Below are positions 1 to 36,767 of a DNA stretch of 36,767 nt, piece after piece (position 1 is the stretch's first letter; the number at the start of each line of letters is the position of its first letter). Both the position numbers and the translations under genes were made by a program. The stretch is from UHGV virus genome UHGV-0208078. One strand, 5' to 3'. The notes under the pieces are model-generated. The model had not been told where the DNA came from, made no database searches, and saw nothing but the letters and a program-made list of their open reading frames with translations. Origin of the DNA: a virus.

Positions 1-3
1 ATT

Positions 4-1035
4 TTATTGTGGTGGATGGCAAATGCCGCACGGTTCATAAACTCCGCGTACCTCAGACAGATGTTTTTCTATCTTAGATTTCAAAGTTCTGCATCCAGCA
101 CTATGATACTTTGCCCCAGTGTTTGTTATATACACGATAGGATCATCTTGGCTTTGCTGTGCAGCCTGCTCTTGTGCTGCTTGCGCTGCAGCTTGCTCTT
201 GTGCAATCCTTTCTTGTTCAGCAGCCGCTGCCGCAGCCTGTTCTTGCTCAATACGCGCCTGTTCAGCTGCTTGAGCTTCCTGTTCCAACCTAATCCGTTC
301 TTCTTCCTCGGCTTTTATTCTCGCTTCTTCTTCCGGATCTATAACGGTAATAGTTTTCGCACTGCTTTTAACTTCTCCATTCGCCGTAAAAAATAGTGAT
401 GCATTCCCAGAACCCGTAAATGTAATGACGGCTTTTCCGTCCTTATATTCGAGATCTGCGATATTATTTTCGGATAATTCCAAACTTTCGATTTTTGCGT
501 CCGACGGGCTTGGAGTAATTTTCACCTCCGTTACATCTCCGATATTAAATTCTTCTTTCCCCCACTCTGCAGATATAGAGTTCAATTCAGATGGAGATCC
601 AAGCCATATAAAGATAATTAGAGATGTTGCAAACACAATCGAGCATATCACAGTATTCCTGATCCTGTATGGCCGGAATTTTTTGGATACAACACAGTAT
701 ATCAATACCGGTATGGCTGGTATCCATAAAAAAGAATACACTACAAGTGCAATAGAGAGCATTATCAGCAAGGCAATAACACTAAGACATCCACCACCAC
801 TTTTATTCGATGCTTTACTCATTGTTTTCCCCTTGTTTTCTTTAGTTTTTCCGTTTTTGGTTTCTGTGTAATACAGTCCGCTCCCTGGAATTCCAAAGCT
901 TTTTGTCCGTTTTCCGTCAGAATTAACAGTGTAGTGTATTCCTTTTCCGCCAAACGTGAAGCTATGGCTATTCTTGTTAAGATTAAACTTTATACCGGGA
1001 GCAATTTTAAAACTTTTTCTAAAACGAAATCCCAT
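4..1035 (-). CDS. DUF4236-type membrane protein with coiled-coil and C-terminal Cys/His motif; 3' end runs off the window (partial)
   Basis: 343-aa ORF. N-terminus MGFRFRKSFKIAPGIKFNLNK...GKGIHYT matches the DUF4236 pattern from memory. One hydrophobic helix (LSVIALLIMLSIALVVYSFLWIPAIPVLIY). Glu/Ala/Gln low-complexity coiled-coil. C-terminal YHSAGC...PCGICHP. No stop before position 4. Confidence 0.75.
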   Translation of the reverse strand: MGFRFRKSFKIAPGIKFNLNKNSHSFTFGGKGIHYTVNSDGKRTKSFGIPGSGLYYTETKNGKTKENKGKTMSKASNKSGGGCLSVIALLIMLSIALVVYSFLWIPAIPVLIYCVVSKKFRPYRIRNTVICSIVFATSLIIFIWLGSPSELNSISAEWGKEEFNIGDVTEVKITPSPSDAKIESLELSENNIADLEYKDGKAVITFTGSGNASLFFTANGEVKSSAKTITVIDPEEEARIKAEEEERIRLEQEAQAAEQARIEQEQAAAAAAEQERIAQEQAAAQAAQEQAAQQSQDDPIVYITNTGAKYHSAGCRTLKSKIEKHLSEVRGVYEPCGICHPPQ

Positions 1036-1168
1036 TCCTTTCTTAATTCACCTTCTTCTTCTCTCCTGTACTTTTCCCACAATTTATATATAAACGCCGA
1101 AGCGGTTATATCATTACCATTATTTACCTGTAGTTTCCAGTTTTGGAATATACTACAATAATTACATT

Positions 1169-1366
1169 ATGAAGATACTACTCGATAAGATCATGCACGA
1201 TAAAAACCTATCTACTCGGCAAGTATCCATTGCAACTGGAATATCAAAATCAACGATTAACCGCATTGCAAATGGTAAAATATCGCCGACAGCTGACACG
1301 CTGGAATTGCTTGCCAAGGACTTAAAAGTCCGAATTTCCGACCTTATCGACTCTCCATATCAATAA
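1169..1366 (+). CDS. small XRE-family HTH transcriptional regulator (65 aa)
   Basis: HTH signature LSTRQVSIATGISKSTINRIANG. Divergent to the DUF4236 gene. Typical phage lysogeny-module regulator. Confidence 0.8.
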   Translation: MKILLDKIMHDKNLSTRQVSIATGISKSTINRIANGKISPTADTLELLAKDLKVRISDLIDSPYQ

Positions 1367-1368
1367 GT

Positions 1369-1396
1369 GTCCCACATCTGGGACGATTGTCCATTT
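1369..1396 (+). terminator. weak hairpin terminator after HTH gene
   Basis: GTCCCA-catc-TGGGAC stem-loop just after the stop, followed by a T-rich stretch (ccattttcg). The T tract is not contiguous. Confidence 0.3.
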
Positions 1397-1470
1397 TCGC
1401 GTAAGTTTCCCGAATTTTAACTGTTTATTTAATAGAGGGCAAAAACATTGCCACAAAATAACAGAACAAA

Positions 1471-1532
1471 TGTTCGAACAAAATATTGATTTTTGTTCCC
1501 TGAGATAGTATTATATGTTCAGGGATTTCGAA
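1471..1532 (+). promoter_or_regulatory. sigma70-like promoter bracketed by TTCGAA operator half-sites
   Basis: -35 TTGATT (1486-1491), 17-nt spacer, -10 TATTAT (1509-1514). Palindromic TGTTCGAACA at 1471-1480 and TTCGAA at 1527-1532. Same core motif as the operators at 2071-2150. Confidence 0.45.
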
Positions 1533-1563
1533 CAAGTGTTTTTGCAGTTAGGGGGATCGCGAA

Positions 1564-1665
1564 ATGGATTACAAAAACAAGATTATCGAACTTATCAACG
1601 GTATAAGTAATACTGCAAAATTAGAGTATCTTTATTACGTGATAAGATCGTTTCTTAAAGGGTAG
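1564..1665 (+). CDS. micro-ORF (33 aa) downstream of the internal promoter
   Basis: ATG at 1564 is preceded by GGGGGA about 8 nt upstream. The ORF ends at the bidirectional hairpin. No homology recognised. It could instead be an untranslated leader. Confidence 0.3.
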   Translation: MDYKNKIIELINGISNTAKLEYLYYVIRSFLKG

Positions 1666-1685
1666 GCTATTGCTTACCCTTTTTA
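1658..1685 (+). terminator. hairpin terminator between convergent genes
   Basis: AAGGGTA-ggctattgct-TACCCTT followed by TTTT. It sits exactly where the + micro-ORF and the leftward repressor gene meet. Confidence 0.5.
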
Positions 1686-2011
1686 GAAAGCGATTCGATA
1701 AGATGCTTTATGGCTTCCTTGTCGGATTCATCTAAAGAATAGTAACAAGATATCATATTGATAATCTCTTGATCTTTCATTATTCGTCCAACTAATGTTC
1801 CACTTTCTTCTCTGGAATAATTTCCAAAAAAGTCGTTTGGTATCATTTCCAGCACTTCACATAATCTTTCTATAGTATCAGCGTCTGGTTTATTCTTATT
1901 ATTTTCCCAATCGCTTATTGAATTATGTTTTGCACCTATTAAATTCGCAAGTTCTTTTTGAGTCATGTTTTTCTTTTTTCTGTATTCCTTTATTTTCTCT
2001 CCTAAACTCAT
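1667..2011 (-). CDS. CI-like repressor, XRE-family HTH (114 aa from the second ATG)
   Basis: HTH MTQKELANLIGAKHNSISDWEN plus a C-terminal domain of about 50 aa. The ORF track starts at 2029, but the ATG at 2011 has GGAGGA 6 nt upstream. It is divergent from the cro-like gene. Confidence 0.8.
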   Translation of the reverse strand: MSLGEKIKEYRKKKNMTQKELANLIGAKHNSISDWENNKNKPDADTIERLCEVLEMIPNDFFGNYSREESGTLVGRIMKDQEIINMISCYYSLDESDKEAIKHLIESLSKKGKQ

Positions 2012-2034
2012 TATGCTTCCTCCTTGCATTTTCT

Positions 2035-2063
2035 ATATTAACACATGGAAATTATATTTTCAA
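2035..2063 (-). promoter_or_regulatory. candidate leftward (PRM-like) promoter for the repressor gene
   Basis: On the minus strand: TTGAAA, 17 nt, TAATAT. It is positioned just upstream of the repressor RBS. Confidence 0.4.
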
Positions 2064-2070
2064 CAAAAAA

Positions 2071-2150
2071 AGTTCGAAAAAATCGAAATTTTAGTGTTGA
2101 CATTCGAATATTTCGAAGTTATAATGAAATTAGTTCGAACGAATCGAAAA
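2071..2150 (+). promoter_or_regulatory. rightward sigma70 promoter with three TTCGAA-N3/4-TCGAA operators (genetic switch)
   Basis: -35 TTGACA (2097-2102), exactly 17 nt, -10 TATAAT (2120-2125). Operator-like dyads: TTCGAAAAAATCGAAA (about 2073-2088), TTCGAATATTTCGAA lying between -35 and -10 (2103-2117), and TTCGAACGAATCGAAA (about 2134-2149). Confidence 0.7.
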
Positions 2151-2170
2151 ATGAAAGAGGTGATTACGGA

Positions 2171-2374
2171 ATGTGTGTAGGTGAAAGAATTAAAGCTTAC
2201 ATGGACGAAAAGGGAATTAAGCAGGTTTTTGTATCACGAAAAACAGGGATACCAAAAGAAAAACTTTGTTCATCATTAAATGGAAATAGGAAATTGCAAT
2301 TTGAAGAATACGAGCTGATCTGTGGAGCGTTAGATGTAAATACGGACAAGTTTATTAAACCGAAGAAATTGTAA
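2171..2374 (+). CDS. Cro-like XRE-family HTH regulator (67 aa)
   Basis: ATG at 2171 after GAAAGAGGTGA. HTH KQVFVSRKTGIPKEKLCSSLNG. First gene of the rightward early operon. The ORF-track extension back to 2045 would cross the promoter and is unlikely. Confidence 0.75.
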   Translation: MCVGERIKAYMDEKGIKQVFVSRKTGIPKEKLCSSLNGNRKLQFEEYELICGALDVNTDKFIKPKKL

Positions 2375-2385
2375 AGGAGAACAAA

Positions 2386-3147
2386 ATGAACAATTTAACA
2401 GTATTTGAACAAAACGGTCAGCTACTCACCGACAGTAGAGAGGTAGCAATGATGGTAGGAAAAGACCATGCAAAACTCTTAAGAGATATCAAAGGATATG
2501 TCAAACATCTTACTGAAGCCAATTTTGGATTGAGTGAATATTTCATTGAATCAGAGTACAAAGACAGTACCGGAAGAACACTTCCATGTTACCTCTGCAC
2601 AAAGAAAGGATGCGACATGATCGCCAACAAAATGACCGGAAAGAAAGGTGTCATTTTCACAGCTACATATATCGAAGCATTTGAGAAGATGAAAGATTTC
2701 ATTGAAAAAGGAACGCAGTACGTAGGCATTCCATTAAAAGAACAGGTGGAATCACTGGAAGTGGTAGCAAGCATGTTAAGAATGAACGATGCAAGCAAGT
2801 TGCTGATGCTGAAAGGGTTCTATGATTCTTACCATATTCCGACAGGATTCTTACCGAATTATGAGTTTAACGGCAATAGGGAAATGAAGTCACTCACAGC
2901 ACTGTTGAAAGAAAACAATCTCGGAATCAGTGCGGTACAGTTCAATAAGAAACTTTTATCAGCTGGAATCTTGGAAGAAAAGGAACGCCAGTCAAGTAAG
3001 GGAAGAGTAAAAAAGTTCAAATCACTGACAGAGAAAGGTTTGAAATACGGTGAAAATGCAGTCAGTCCTCATAATCAGAAAGAAGTGCAGCCGTTGTATT
3101 ACAGTGATACATTTAATGAACTGTTTGAAATGGTGATGAATGACTAG
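2386..3147 (+). CDS. phage regulatory protein Rha / antirepressor family
   Basis: N-terminus TVFEQNGQLLTDSREVAMMVGKDHAKLLRDIKGY matches the Rha N-terminal motif as remembered. RBS AAGGAGA. Position right after cro. Confidence 0.75.
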   Translation: MNNLTVFEQNGQLLTDSREVAMMVGKDHAKLLRDIKGYVKHLTEANFGLSEYFIESEYKDSTGRTLPCYLCTKKGCDMIANKMTGKKGVIFTATYIEAFEKMKDFIEKGTQYVGIPLKEQVESLEVVASMLRMNDASKLLMLKGFYDSYHIPTGFLPNYEFNGNREMKSLTALLKENNLGISAVQFNKKLLSAGILEEKERQSSKGRVKKFKSLTEKGLKYGENAVSPHNQKEVQPLYYSDTFNELFEMVMND

Positions 3148-3204
3148 CCCGCCACAAGCCCGAAAGATGCAGAGGACGGAATAAAAAGAAAGAGAGGTAA
3201 AACA

Positions 3205-3465
3205 ATGATTGGCTACAAAACATCTAACGATTCGGTAGTTTTGAACTATACAAAAGATAACGCAGTATCTTTCTTATGCCAGGCTATGTTTGATGAGACG
3301 TTGAGATTAAGGAAATGTGTCCGAAGAAAAGAAAGAGATTCCATAAGAAATTTTCTTACAGAATCTTTTCGAATACTTGTTGCAAATACTCAAGATACAG
3401 AAAGTCGAGAAGAGCATTTAGATGATACGACGCAAGGGATCCCAATGTCCAGTAGCATAAGGTAA
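3205..3465 (+). CDS. hypothetical protein (86 aa)
   Basis: ATG preceded by AGAGAGGT. It overlaps the 3' end of the opposite-strand ORF by about 110 nt, so one of the two may be shorter than called. Confidence 0.45.
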   Translation: MIGYKTSNDSVVLNYTKDNAVSFLCQAMFDETLRLRKCVRRKERDSIRNFLTESFRILVANTQDTESREEHLDDTTQGIPMSSSIR

Positions 3466-3868
3466 TCAATGTTTTAATAAAAATGTTTGTATTTATGCTA
3501 TATGTTTGAAGAATCCTTACAGGAAGAAATATCCAATAAAAGGGATTGATAGAGTTTTTCAACCTTATCCTATAGACGCCTAGCGTCAGTTGAAATACCT
3601 TATCCACTTCAAGAAAATAGTCTTTTCTATCCGCCAGATATGCTACATCTCGAACGGTTCTCTCTAAGTAACCATGTTTTCTTTCGTCATAGGTTGTGCG
3701 ATAAGAGGTGTTAGCGTTTTTGAATAGGGAATCTATTTCGGGAATGTATGAGGTTATCCAATTTCCAGTTTTAAATTTTCTATATAAATTTTTCGTTTTT
3801 AAGAATCGAAAACCATTTATAAGAATTTTTACAAAAATAATTATTGAAATGAGAAGAATTACTTTCAT
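3356..3868 (-). CDS. membrane-anchored hypothetical protein (170 aa), opposite strand to the early operon; moron candidate
   Basis: ATG at 3868 has AGGAAAGGAAA 4 nt upstream. N-terminal TM helix MKVILLISIIIFVKILINGF, then a polar domain (YDERKHGYLERTVRDVAYLADRKDYFLEV). The C-terminal third is encoded by AT-rich DNA and may be over-extended. Confidence 0.5.
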   Translation of the reverse strand: MKVILLISIIIFVKILINGFRFLKTKNLYRKFKTGNWITSYIPEIDSLFKNANTSYRTTYDERKHGYLERTVRDVAYLADRKDYFLEVDKVFQLTLGVYRIRLKNSINPFYWIFLPVRILQTYSINTNIFIKTLITLCYWTLGSLASYHLNALLDFLYLEYLQQVFEKIL

Positions 3869-3965
3869 AGATATTTCCTTTCCTGAAACGAGTATAAATA
3901 TTCACTTTAATTATAGAAGAAAATTAATTAAATGGCAATAAAAGAAAAGAAAGAGAGGTGACAGC

Positions 3966-4142
3966 GTGAGTGAGAAAGAAAAAGAGATCATCCGCAAAGT
4001 AGCGCATGCGCTGACGGAAGTGATCGGGATGGTAAAGCAGTGGTATGCAGACAATGGATATCCAAGAGAAATCTCATACATACAGTGCGATGGACAGATA
4101 AAGAAATATCATGTGATCGTCAGAGATTCGGATGCTAATTAA
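3966..4142 (+). CDS. small hypothetical protein (58 aa, GTG start)
   Basis: GTG preceded by AGAGAGGTGA. Translation VSEKEKEIIRKVAHALTEVIGMVKQWYADNGYPREISYIQCDGQIKKYHVIVRDSDAN. It is absent from the ORF track because it is under 60 aa. Confidence 0.45.
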   Translation: MSEKEKEIIRKVAHALTEVIGMVKQWYADNGYPREISYIQCDGQIKKYHVIVRDSDAN

Positions 4143-4201
4143 AAACGTAGGACAACATACGCAGGACGATCAACCTGCATACAGTAAAGAGGGGTGGTGA
4201 A

Positions 4202-4354
4202 ATGAAAGGAATCGAAGTAGTAAGCATGATCAAAATCAATGGTTCTTGGGTAAACCAGGAGGACTTAAGCAAGGAAGAATTTTCCGAGATTTTGGAGAAA
4301 AAATTAGATGAAACAATGAAAAATATAGGATTCGAAAGAAGAAAAACCGCTTAG
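4202..4354 (+). CDS. small hypothetical protein (50 aa)
   Basis: ATG after GAGGGGTGGTGA. Translation MKGIEVVSMIKINGSWVNQEDLSKEEFSEILEKKLDETMKNIGFERRKTA. Confidence 0.4.
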   Translation: MKGIEVVSMIKINGSWVNQEDLSKEEFSEILEKKLDETMKNIGFERRKTA

Positions 4355-33238: not shown

Positions 33239-33325
33239 ATGAGCGAACAGAACGAATTTGGCAGAGTATCCGTAGAGGAACTGGAAAAGGCATTCGAGGC
33301 AGAAGAACAGGAGGAAGAGGAGTAA
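33239..33325 (+). CDS. acidic micro-ORF (28 aa) between holin and endolysin
   Basis: Strong RBS AGGAGGTGA 6 nt upstream. MSEQNEFGRVSVEELEKAFEAEEQEEEE. Its stop overlaps the endolysin ATG (TAATG). Confidence 0.35.
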   Translation: MSEQNEFGRVSVEELEKAFEAEEQEEEE

Positions 33326-34062
33326 TGAGTATCTGTAGAGGAATTGCCGGCAGGAGAGGGAAGAATCCTGTCGGTATTTTTATCCACAACGGGGCAGACA
33401 GCCAGAACGCAACATCGGAATACTATAAAAACTACTTGCAGAGAGCGAACTTGGAGAATGGATTTGCGCATTATTATGTTTGCAGTGATGGAATTCTGCA
33501 AGCAGAGGATGATTCAAACTGTGCTTGGCATTGCGGAAATTCGAATGGAAATCTTAATTTCTTGGGAATAGAAGTCTGCCAGAGTATGGGCGATCTGAAT
33601 GTATTTAAAGCGAATGAGGAAAAAGCATTACAGTTGGCAGCACAGAAGTGCAGGCAGTATGGAATTACACCAAGTGCAAGCACGATCATGCTGCATCAGG
33701 AGGTGTTTGCAACCGCTTGTCCGCACAGATCAGTGGAGATTCACAGCGGCGCAGCGCAGACAAAAGCCTATTTTATTAACCGTATCAAGGAGCTTATGAA
33801 CGGAAACCAAAGCACAACAACAGATCAGGAAGGAGAAGAGACTATGCAGTGTATGTTTACGGTGAAAGGAAAAGGATGTGTTTATTGGATGCATGATGGA
33901 GTGGTTACAGCTTTAGCACACCCTGATGAGTTAAAAATCATTCAGCAAATTTATAAGGATAACTATGGACATGATATGCCATGTTACAGTTGGAGCAAGC
34001 CAGCGCCATGGCATATTAGGCTGATGGAACCATTATATCGTGAACCCGTAAAATCTATTTAA
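33325..34062 (+). CDS. endolysin, N-acetylmuramoyl-L-alanine amidase (Amidase_2/PGRP fold) with uncharacterised C-terminal domain
   Basis: The N-terminal two-thirds (GIFIHNGADSQNATSEYYKNYL...AWHCGNSNGNLNFLGIEVCQS) resembles the Amidase_2/PGRP domain from memory. The Zn-ligand residues were not mapped. The C-terminal 70 aa or so is unassigned. Confidence 0.8.
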   Translation: MSICRGIAGRRGKNPVGIFIHNGADSQNATSEYYKNYLQRANLENGFAHYYVCSDGILQAEDDSNCAWHCGNSNGNLNFLGIEVCQSMGDLNVFKANEEKALQLAAQKCRQYGITPSASTIMLHQEVFATACPHRSVEIHSGAAQTKAYFINRIKELMNGNQSTTTDQEGEETMQCMFTVKGKGCVYWMHDGVVTALAHPDELKIIQQIYKDNYGHDMPCYSWSKPAPWHIRLMEPLYREPVKSI

Positions 34063-34069
34063 TAAAAAT

Positions 34070-34096
34070 CCCCTCGGAGATCAGCTCTCTGAGGGG
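34070..34096 (+). terminator. hairpin terminator after the endolysin
   Basis: CCCCTCGGAG-atcagct-CTCTGAGGGG (one G-U). T-rich sequence follows at some distance. Confidence 0.5.
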
Positions 34097-34138
34097 TGAA
34101 TATTGCATCATTTTCGTGTATATTTATAATATGTAAAA

Positions 34139-34190
34139 ATATTATAGGTTATTGCTATTTGGTGGCCCGGATTGTAGTAACCTATAACAT
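34139..34190. promoter_or_regulatory. 52-bp imperfect inverted repeat; candidate att site for the adjacent serine recombinase
   Basis: ATATTATAGGTTA-N26-TAACCTATAACAT (12/13 arm identity) in an AT-rich intergenic region between the endolysin and the 3' end of the recombinase gene. Confidence 0.4.
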
Positions 34191-34217
34191 ATCCGCAAAC
34201 CCTTATAAACAGAGGGC

Positions 34218-35636
34218 TCACGATATGTAAAGATGGAAGATCAGTTTTCCGTTTTTCTTGTCATAAACGATATCTTCTACCAAACTTCTCATAAAAATCC
34301 CTTTGGTATCATAGTCTATCGCATCATTTTTAATCACATCATATACAGTTTGCACGTTCTTGAGCACGTCAGATTTTGTTTTCGCGTCTTCATTATTCTT
34401 ATTGAGATTTTCCAGTTGCATCAAAATATCTTCCCTGTCTTTTCGCAGACGCTCTTTGTTCCGTTTATATTCTTCCAAAGTATCTACTTCATTCTCATAA
34501 GCGAGACGGATCCGTTTCTCCCTGTTGGAAATTTTATCAAGTTCAGACAAGAGCGATTCACGTTCTGATATCTTCTCGCCGGTCTCAGCAGAGTGGTAGG
34601 AGTATTCAAAATCCATACCGGAAAGAAGTTTTTCAAAATATTCTTCCAGTGCAGCGATCACTTTTTTCTCTGATATCGAACAGGATTCGGTATGTATTCC
34701 TTTACTGTACTTATAACACTGAAAACCAGGTGAGTGCCTGTTTGCACCATTGTAGGCGAGAGAGGCCCCGCAGTATCCACATTTTAAAATCCCTGATAAC
34801 CAATGTTTACATGAGGATACATCACGGCGTTTCAGTGGCTTATATGTAGTTTGTATCTTTTTCATGCGCTCTTCGAAGCGTTCTTTTGAATAATAGACTT
34901 CATGCGTTCCCATGAATGTTATTCCATTCCACGCGACAAGACCATAATAGAATGGATTTTTCAAGATTCTTTCTACGCTACGGGATTCGAAAGGGTTCCC
35001 TCGTCTTGTGCGGACCCCCATATCGTTTAGCTTTCTTGTTATCTTTGTGACGTCCGAGTTGTGGCGATCAAATTCATCGCAGATAAAATCCACGACCTTC
35101 ATTTCATCCGGATCAATTTTATAAGGATCTCCGTTTCCGACAGCACGATACCCAAAAGGTGGGGACATCTGGTATCCTTTTTTTGTAGCCTTTTCTTTCA
35201 TCCCTCTTAGGACTTCGCCAGAAAGCCGGATAGAGTAGTATTCATCCATCCATTCAATGATTCTCTCGATTAAAGAGCCGAATGGACCATCTATCAAAGG
35301 TTCTGATACACTCACAACATCAACGTTGCTTTGCTTCCTCAGCAGGGATTTGTATACGATAGATTCTTCTTGATTTCTTGCGAATCTGCTGAATTTCCAA
35401 ACCAGGATCACATCGACTGGATGATCGGATGATTTCGCAAGACCAATCATTTTTTGGAACTCTGGGCGTTTATCCGCTTTTCTTCCGGATATTCCGAGTT
35501 CAAAAAAGATTTTCGATACTACATATCCGTGACTTTTCGCGTAATCTTTCAATAGCTTTGCTTGAGAATCCGGGGATAATTCATCCTGTTTTCCTGTGGA
35601 TACACGGACGTATCCAAAGGCATATTTCGTTTCCAT
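34218..35636 (-). CDS. int: large serine recombinase (phage integrase, resolvase/invertase N-terminal domain)
   Basis: N-terminus YAFGYVRVSTGKQDELSPDSQ with the catalytic Ser context. 472 aa. Cys-rich zinc-ribbon region CKHWLSGILKCGYCGASL. Leftward orientation after the lysis genes. Confidence 0.85.
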   Translation of the reverse strand: METKYAFGYVRVSTGKQDELSPDSQAKLLKDYAKSHGYVVSKIFFELGISGRKADKRPEFQKMIGLAKSSDHPVDVILVWKFSRFARNQEESIVYKSLLRKQSNVDVVSVSEPLIDGPFGSLIERIIEWMDEYYSIRLSGEVLRGMKEKATKKGYQMSPPFGYRAVGNGDPYKIDPDEMKVVDFICDEFDRHNSDVTKITRKLNDMGVRTRRGNPFESRSVERILKNPFYYGLVAWNGITFMGTHEVYYSKERFEERMKKIQTTYKPLKRRDVSSCKHWLSGILKCGYCGASLAYNGANRHSPGFQCYKYSKGIHTESCSISEKKVIAALEEYFEKLLSGMDFEYSYHSAETGEKISERESLLSELDKISNREKRIRLAYENEVDTLEEYKRNKERLRKDREDILMQLENLNKNNEDAKTKSDVLKNVQTVYDVIKNDAIDYDTKGIFMRSLVEDIVYDKKNGKLIFHLYIS

Positions 35637-35772
35637 GTTATCATCTCCTTATTTAATTTTATGCAAAAACGAGTACAAAAATAACAGCCAGCGCAAAACA
35701 TATGTTCCGCTTGCGTGACTGCTCCGAAGATGATACAATATTCGTGGATTTCAATAGCATATCTTCGGATAT

Positions 35773-35808
35773 GTAGACCGTCTCAGTGTTGGTAGCACTG
35801 GGGCGGTT
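35773..35808 (+). repeat. copy A of an imperfect direct repeat flanking the RhuM-like gene
   Basis: GTAGACCGTCTCAGTGTTGGTAGCACTGGGGCGGTTTT. It contains the hairpin CAGTG-ttggtag-CACTG followed by GGGGCGGTTTT. Confidence 0.5.
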
Positions 35809-35811
35809 TTA

Positions 35812-36705
35812 TTATTTTTCGGATAATTTTTTCTGTTCTCGTTCTATTTGTTTAATACTTTTTGCCGGAGTAGGTAAATCTTCAGGCATAGTACCTCCTA
35901 AGCGAGAAATGGTATCACGTATTTCCTTTCCAACATTATAGTGAGTTTGATTCGCAGCGGATTTTCCTTGAATCTTTTCACGACGTAATTTTGCTTCAGT
36001 CTGAGTAGCGCGGAAAAGGTTAGCGGCTAATTCCTCGTATCCCATATGATCTAAGATTTTTTCGCTATTTTTGAGTCCTTTATGTTGATGAATATCTTTG
36101 GCAGTCATACCACCATATAGACCTTGATATCCATGATTCTGAAAGATAGCATAATCCAGAGAACTTTCGACACCGGCATTCTTGGCAGCGTCCACTAACA
36201 TTTTATTATGTTCAGCCATTTCGTACCGGATTGCAAGACGCTTCTGATCGTCACTAAGAGTATCAAAGTTATCAATAAGCTCTTGTTGTCTGGTTTTCAC
36301 TGCAAAGTAGGTTTGACCAAGTGCAATTACTTTTTTTCTAGAATCACCATTCTGTACAATCAAATAGCATGCGTAGCGGGAAAGTTTATAATCATCAATA
36401 ATGCGTTCGCCGCCATTAGGCATAGGTGATGATTTGCCAACATTGGCAAAATGTTCAGATACAGCATTTCCACTGTTTTCACAGGCTGTTTTCGCACGAA
36501 CGATTACTTCCTCAAACCTGCGCCATTGACTATATTCAAGTGCATTTTGCATTTCTCTGGCATACCAAAACTCTTGACCATATTTATTGATGTGTTTAAT
36601 AGACTCAAACAAAGATTCTGTATAACTATTTTGCTCTTCTTCTGTCAAGGCTTTATTGAGAACTCGGTCATGTATTTCATTTAATTTATCGTCAAAATCA
36701 TTCAT
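35812..36705 (-). CDS. RhuM / DinD-like (DNA-damage-inducible protein D family) protein
   Basis: ERIIDDYKLSRYACYLIVQNGDSRKKVIALGQTYFAVKTRQQE matches the DinD/RhuM core as remembered. 297 aa. Same strand as int. Confidence 0.65.
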   Translation of the reverse strand: MNDFDDKLNEIHDRVLNKALTEEEQNSYTESLFESIKHINKYGQEFWYAREMQNALEYSQWRRFEEVIVRAKTACENSGNAVSEHFANVGKSSPMPNGGERIIDDYKLSRYACYLIVQNGDSRKKVIALGQTYFAVKTRQQELIDNFDTLSDDQKRLAIRYEMAEHNKMLVDAAKNAGVESSLDYAIFQNHGYQGLYGGMTAKDIHQHKGLKNSEKILDHMGYEELAANLFRATQTEAKLRREKIQGKSAANQTHYNVGKEIRDTISRLGGTMPEDLPTPAKSIKQIEREQKKLSEK

Positions 36706-36730: not shown

Positions 36731-36767
36731 CTCGTAGACCGTCTCTGTTGGCGCAGGGGCGGTTTTT
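36731..36767 (+). repeat. copy B of the same repeat, truncated by the window end
   Basis: CTCGTAGACCGTCTCTGTTGGCGCAGGGGCGGTTTTT. About 80% identical to copy A, same orientation. Confidence 0.5.

Follow-up and report, generated by a model that had tools for sequence, protein, structure and literature searches.

A palindromic attP site of a Mediterraneibacter gnavus phage and its large serine integrase, targeting the spore-coat gene cotJC

The imperfect palindrome at 34139–34190 is, almost certainly, the attP of the adjacent large serine integrase, by which the phage would insert itself into the spore-coat gene cotJC. Coordinates refer to the window, that is, the whole 36,767-nucleotide stretch of DNA that was analysed. 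The features on which this reading turns are the following.

34139–34190, no strand: attP, an imperfect 52-bp palindrome made of two 25-bp half-sites and a central GG, assigned from the inverted repeat, from junction homology that ends at its centre and from the palindromes of relatives
34164–34165, no strand: crossover dinucleotide GG, non-palindromic and bracketed by mismatches at −1 and +1
34143–34151, plus strand: outer half-site motif TATAGGTTA of the P arm, conserved and likely a contact of the zinc-ribbon domain, by analogy with the LI integrase structure (PMC3783163)
34178–34186, minus strand: copy of the outer half-site motif carried by the P' arm, plus-strand sequence TAACCTATA, symmetric about 34164/34165
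34218–35636, minus strand: large serine integrase of 472 aa, assigned from Pfam and PHROG matches
34114–35644, no strand: exchangeable attP-int cassette, delimited by homology breaks in phages bearing other recombinases

The sequence at 34139–34190 is ATATTATAGGTTATTGCTATTTGGT GG CCCGGATTGTAGTAACCTATAACAT. The original prediction had described an inverted repeat here with arms matching at 12 of 13 positions, and this was borne out when the sequence was re-read and the dyad scored: the outer 13-nt arms do match at 12/13, a repeat finder stretches them to 20 nt with 80% complementarity and a 12-nt gap, and the dyad about 34164/34165 is symmetric at 18 of 26 positions. That value is the top dyad score over all centres in the 36.8-kb window, making this its best 52-bp dyad. 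First-order Markov shuffles of the whole window contain 0.16 equally good dyads per shuffle, and when the 155-bp intergenic region between lysin and int is shuffled 18/26 is attained in 0.26% of cases. By composition alone the repeat is real and just moderately unlikely, not overwhelming; it is the junction evidence, rather than composition, that argues for a functional site. As the GG is non-palindromic, it would set the polarity of integration.

Lysogens were located on the int side via the exact integrase protein, which many contigs carry, and on the lysin side via the exact endolysin protein, and the junctions on both sides break at the centre of the repeat, which upholds the earlier proposal of a serine-integrase attP. 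On the int side (L003–L006, with a 100% identical integrase and including a complete 3.36-Mb chromosome) int is followed by the bacterial genes cotJB and cotJA and an ABC-F gene; identity with the window extends from int through ...ATGTTATAGGTTACTACAATCCGGGCC (...CCGGGCC), and the divergent sequence beyond is the 5' part of cotJC. A Logan contig of 36.5 kb (L007) stops exactly at the junction base of this side. The lysin-side lysogens (L088–L092, L094, L096) are identical to the window through ...TATTGCTATTTGGTGG (...TTTGGTGG) and then pass into the 3' part of cotJC, which matches Pfam Mn_catalase. The centre reads T-GG-C in attP, C-GG-C at the int-side junction, T-GG-A at the lysin-side junction and C-GG-A in the rebuilt attB: mismatches lie on either side of the GG in attP, attB and both junctions, and the exchange is therefore confined to 34164–34165. 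Once joined, the bacterial halves encode a 207-aa CotJC starting MWNYEKRLQYPVKI...SQFGGPDGE, in which the GG supplies bases 1–2 of codon 31 (Gly31) of the FGGPDGE motif. In gene order the target comes third, behind cotJA and cotJB (Pfam CotJA, CotJB, Mn_catalase), and the insertion falls inside its coding sequence. These natural products point to the integrase at 34218–35636 as the enzyme that would recombine 34139–34190.

A bacterial partner site, which the original prediction had proposed as a search target, was found: the predicted attB (ATTTCACAATTTGGCGGMCCGGACGGGGAGCT; ATCATTTCACAATTTGGCGGACCGGACGGGGAGCTCGCTG over a span of ∼40 bp) is present and unoccupied in 48 human-gut metagenome contigs (L097–L144). 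When aligned to a model of the two host flanks, 37 of the 48 are collinear across the junction, and one of them (L127) matches the two-flank model over 6000/6000 bases at 99.85%. The window had been suggested to be a non-integrated form that wraps into its DUF4236 side, and both suggestions hold: its last 150 and first 150 bases, once joined, are identical at 300/300 positions to a contiguous stretch of an integrated prophage (L005), and the join runs from the Bro-N/DinD-like gene to DUF4236. The window is therefore not a fragment of a lysogen; it is a complete closed, excised temperate-phage genome, opened arbitrarily between the DUF4236 and Bro-N genes. Judged by the source annotations of close homologues of one window protein (P0001, P0005, P0014), its host is Mediterraneibacter (Ruminococcus) gnavus. 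The excised circle and the restored gene both occur in nature: the window is an excised circle with intact attP, and intact cotJC with the exact attB is found in the same species.

The stop codon of the integrase lies 28 bp from the repeat. Its protein matches Resolvase (PF00239, 5.6e-28), Recombinase (PF07508, 3.6e-14) and Zn_ribbon_recom (PF13408, 1.3e-7), all past the Pfam cut-offs, and PHROG 95 (integrase) at 7e-105; the presence of resolvase, recombinase and zinc-ribbon domains identifies it as a large serine recombinase, and the YVRVST motif at the N-terminus is typical of the catalytic serine. Among PDB sequences the catalytic domain alone finds matches (TP901-1, TnpX and others) and the C-terminal domains have none at E<=0.001, so that no close characterized relative can be named. 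The repeat and the integrase form one exchangeable cassette, since homology to MT836489 ends at 34113 and picks up again at 35673, and since 35645–35818 is common to phages with unrelated serine recombinases at other cotJC positions, with 80–86% conservation. Two lysin-bearing phages (L093, L095) diverge from the window right past the lysin terminator. The cassette is flanked by the endolysin (Amidase_2, 33325–34062), with a holin upstream, and by a Bro-N protein at 35812–36705. Further along the genome, 28726–32658 encodes a tail-fibre-like protein of 1310 aa that contains long G-x-y repeats of the collagen type and whose counterpart gene in L088 matches Pfam Collagen.

Relatives of the integrase number 80, at 44–94% identity, and come from Blautia, Dorea, Roseburia, Lachnospira, Anaerocolumna and others. 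A cotJC fragment adjoins int in 62 of them, each broken at the same GG, and both element sides display the arm consensus tTATAgGtTAytGcAnTAyGGt (42 P arms, 23 P' arms), which subclades alter jointly in both arms, for example to TATACCTTA. Intact palindromic attPs adjoin int, with no cotJC fragment, in the IMG/VR contigs L145–L148 and in L016 and L017; searched across IMG/VR, the exact 44-bp attP has 0 matches and the degenerate family pattern is found in 4 contigs. The comparison shows a whole Lachnospiraceae integrase clade aimed at a single glycine codon, itself conserved, in the gene for a spore-coat catalase. Five minimal elements have a half of cotJC at either end (L045, 2.8 kb; L075, 4.1 kb; L073, 4.45 kb; L043, 4.5 kb; L046, 7.5 kb) and retain little apart from the integrase and a single small ORF or a few of them. 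Further ORFs common to the minimal elements but antisense to int (e.g. L045 874–1470) were set aside as artefacts. Relatives below ∼50% identity (L053, L057, L066, L084; L050, L052, L062, L071, L085, L086; L035) have a similar outer half-site, other central dinucleotides (TG, CA) and other target genes, and they show how target specificity diversified within the integrase family.

The organization of the site is close to that of Listeria phage A118 and its LI integrase (PMC3783163), with a pseudo-palindromic attP of ∼50 bp and half-sites of 25 bp, and A118 likewise integrates inside a host ORF, comK. The target and the motifs differ from those of LI, and the C-terminal domains find no match to it at the threshold given above. 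In the LI model the inner motifs are common to attP and attB, and the outer motif lies ∼5 bp nearer the centre in attB (PMC3783163). In the window family the 5-bp shift is seen for the B arm only, at family level: by column similarity the outer attP motif fits the left (B) arm of attB best at a 5-bp inward shift (0.528 versus <=0.39 elsewhere), whereas on the right (B') arm the shift of +5 scores 0.304, second to +9 (0.343). With protein–DNA contacts and chemistry taken from the mechanism of the family, an integrase dimer would bind both 25-bp half-sites of attP and synapse with a dimer on attB within cotJC (CACAATTTGGC-GG-ACCGGACGGGGAG); all four strands would be cut at the central GG, one half would turn by 180 degrees and the ends would be religated, splitting cotJC at codon 31.

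Another of the closest known systems is SPbeta of Bacillus subtilis with its SprA/SprB system (PMC4191935, PMC5499854). It, too, is a temperate phage, active and equipped with a large serine integrase, that resides inside a spore-envelope gene (spsM). Both have a palindromic attP with a 2-bp crossover, and minimal derivatives of both exist. In the early region of SPbeta, directly behind a promoter of the sigma-E/K type, lies the gene for a partner of ∼50–60 aa (SprB, 58 aa), for which the window offers a candidate only. Unlike SPbeta, the window phage has a host in the class Clostridia (Lachnospiraceae), targets cotJC, uses other att sequences and carries a small ORF without detectable similarity to known factors; its enzyme has no close sequence relationship to any solved integrase, the PDB match being confined to the catalytic domain. 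Serine-recombinase elements that split mother-cell sporulation genes, as here, include skin and skinCd (sigK), vfbin (spoVFB), gin (gerE) and yin (yabG) (PMC5595907, PMC10747680); the five minimal elements resemble degenerate remnants of the skin/gin type, whereas the window is an entire phage genome in its excised state. Among deposited phages, the closest are those of R. gnavus, phiRg507T2_3, phiRgIBDN1 and relatives (MT980836-41), which share its host and its lysin-att-int-lysogeny layout and are ∼75–80% identical in nucleotide sequence in the lysin region. They carry a different integrase gene (e.g. gp21, 384 aa) and do not share the window's attP-int cassette.

In the literature covered, cotJC figures only in a list of targets for integration, for which bioRxiv 10.1101/2021.11.22.469490 cites Abe et al. 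2013. A targeted literature search, in which Abe et al. 2013 was represented second-hand, found no description of this cotJC att site or of the Lachnospiraceae integrase clade. As attP sites of large serine integrases go, this one, with cotJC as its target, is of a textbook kind; its definition in an M. gnavus phage is new. It provides a base-accurate attP/attB pair with its integrase for a prevalent, disease-associated gut species that has few genetic tools, and the set could serve as an integration vector or as a further orthogonal serine integrase. The data also suggest the hypothesis that gut Clostridia, like Bacillus with SPbeta, couple the excision of prophages to sporulation.

This last proposal centres on a small gene of the early region and the sequence ahead of it.

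4202–4354, plus strand: 50-aa ORF, candidate recombination directionality factor, on the basis of co-occurrence with the int clade
4150–4186, plus strand: putative sigma-K/sigma-E-like promoter motif, a GGACAA box followed by AC-N17-CATACAGTA (CATACAGTA at 4178–4186)

Excision would require the 50-aa product as directionality factor, the ORF would be transcribed from the mother-cell-type promoter motif, and the prophage would also excise during sporulation, rebuilding cotJC, as SPbeta does for spsM. Sporulation-coupled excision through this factor has close to an even chance of being correct. A broader version, to be held tentatively and at slightly below even likelihood, envisages a developmental switch in a gut commensal: attP and int would be joined to a new, unannotated family of directionality factors under the control of a sigma-K/E (plus SpoIIID-like) promoter, the prophage and the minimal Lachnospiraceae relatives of 2.8–7.5 kb would excise in the mother cell and so rebuild cotJC, and cotJC would be a landing pad for at least 4–5 unrelated serine recombinases (codons 31, 62–64, 68, 136 and ∼175). 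If this is true, some genomes would have to lose two or more elements independently before a single cotJC is whole again. The competing interpretation, whose probability also falls a little short of one half, retains the site as attP but regards cotJC as just a tolerated ‘safe harbour’, with excision solely on lytic induction and the 50-aa ORF as an unrelated early gene.

The distribution of the small ORF bears directly on this choice. An iterative profile search placed homologues beside 39 of the 80 int relatives; among the 43 relatives with 5.5 kb or more of sequence upstream, 30 have one. Of the 39 copies, 38 are encoded on the opposite strand to int and 11 are within ∼200 bp of the int start, and no member of the family was found beside other recombinases. 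The phage in L119 has a backbone that is 99.4% identical over window positions 1–3142, a different recombinase and another cotJC site, and in the slot of 4202–4354 it has an unrelated 64-aa ORF (BLASTP E=0.31 against the 50-aa protein; homology was rejected and the difference taken as replacement). Co-occurrence with this integrase clade alone, and replacement when the integrase is replaced, tell against an unrelated early gene. The persistence in cotJC of elements of 2.8–7.5 kb that retain little but the integrase likewise weighs against a mere safe harbour; the smallest of them (L045) keeps int and a homologue of the 50-aa ORF. In favour of the safe harbour, the ORF is located in the phage early region, and neither homology nor fold ties it to a known directionality factor: the protein has nothing above threshold in Pfam or PHROG, and its AlphaFold model (pLDDT 88.8, a predicted beta-hairpin plus helix) has no match below E=3.9 when compared with the PDB by Foldseek. 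Known directionality factors are reported to be without a common fold (PMC12286644), and the Foldseek result is for that reason uninformative. The swapped small ORF has the ‘MSEKEKEIIRKVA’ gene on one side and the ‘KGTYxCxTTQ...WDIRSVSVELPE’ gene on the other. Near-identical phage backbones with different serine-recombinase cassettes amount to a natural module exchange, here of window 3143–4328 against L119 2854–4758, and of 34114–35644.

Upstream of the small ORFs the family consensus is aAC-N17-CATAnnaTA, often after G(G/T)ACAA. In Bacillus, sigma-K promoters have the consensus AC-N17-CATAnnnTA; the GGACAA sequence is similar to a SpoIIID box. Motif counts in the small-ORF upstreams, which are related sequences and hence non-independent samples, compare as follows with those in control ORF upstreams.

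CATAnnnTA: small-ORF upstreams 20/35; control ORF upstreams 62/1147
AC-N16-17-CATAnnnTA: small-ORF upstreams 14/35; control ORF upstreams 12/1147
GKACAR-N8-12-CATA: small-ORF upstreams 15/35; control ORF upstreams 0/1147

The enrichment of the two longer motifs speaks against the safe-harbour interpretation. In its favour, the −10 element ends ∼15–18 nt ahead of the start codon at 4202, and the predicted leader is thus unusually short. Precedents from SPbeta and skinCd, where directionality factors are placed under sporulation sigma factors, count on the side of coupling: in SPbeta a mother-cell promoter directly upstream of the gene for the 58-aa SprB times excision (PMC4191935), and in skinCd the directionality factor is under a sporulation sigma factor (PMC5595907). 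With regard to the host, R. gnavus was long held to be a non-spore-former, which suits a safe harbour, but it is able to sporulate under suitable conditions (PMC10112845). The safe harbour also gains from the finding that most of the contigs examined have an interrupted cotJC, frequently with several elements in it.

Other interruptions of cotJC were catalogued, and they make the gene a landing pad with several sites in this species. A break at aa 62–64 is associated with a 550-aa recombinase and a non-phage element, one at aa 68 with a 510-aa recombinase in a phage with the same DUF4236/cI/antirepressor backbone, one at aa 136 with a 522-aa recombinase with DUF4368, and one at ∼aa 175 with a 505-aa recombinase; the loci are L088/L089/L091 (∼5158), L096, L119 (8073–9643) and L135 (9475–11146). 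Breaks at aa 64–69 and 136 recur in other Lachnospiraceae. Among the 48 contigs in which the codon-31 site is empty, only ∼7 have a cotJC that is intact throughout, and one scaffold (L003 + L088) carries two elements in the same cotJC.

That the repeat serves the convergent lysin and int genes mainly as a terminator or RNA hairpin, instead of being a recombination site, is very improbable. Its position between the two convergent genes would suit such a role, as would its folding: the int-strand RNA can pair into an outer stem of 13 bp with UAUUUUU behind it (−15.8 kcal/mol, z −2.2), and for the plus strand the fold energy is −23.1 kcal/mol (z −3.6). Each gene, however, has a nearer hairpin, which for int lies at ∼34197–34222 on the minus strand (−13 kcal/mol) and for the lysin is the following.

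34070–34096, plus strand: endolysin terminator hairpin, outside attP, −20.6 kcal/mol, z −3.6

The original prediction had separated this GC hairpin from the repeat and had denied that the latter is a terminator, and on both counts it was right. The hairpin is real, and the terminator scan does not report 34139–34190, which has an AT-rich stem around a 23-nt interior and does not combine the GC-rich stem, short loop and T-run of an intrinsic terminator. In addition, relatives keep the sequence of the arms beyond mere pairing, and a terminator would not account for prophage junctions that break right at the repeat centre. Termination as the sole function is thus contradicted by the junctions, the scan and the nearer hairpins; a secondary role of the attP repeat as a weak int terminator may exist.

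The fallback of the original prediction, in which the true att lies elsewhere, for example upstream of int at 35637–35811 where hairpins and repeats are indeed present, taken together with the idea that the repeat is an operator or other protein-binding site, is so unlikely as to be negligible, given that 35645–35818 is shared with phages bearing unrelated recombinases and is therefore not specific to the integrase at 34218–35636, and that the junction sequences refute it, the lysogen prophage being collinear through the region upstream of int and ending at 34164/34165 on both sides.

Two similar modules of a hairpin and T-run, AGACCGTCTC...GGGGCGGTTTT, are found at 35775–35809 and at 36737–36767, the second wrapping into 1–10. 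Both are oriented as plus-strand terminators, one on each side of the minus-strand Bro-N/DinD-like gene. In the lysogen, transcription that enters from the cotJAB side of the host would run into them, and they may act as insulators.
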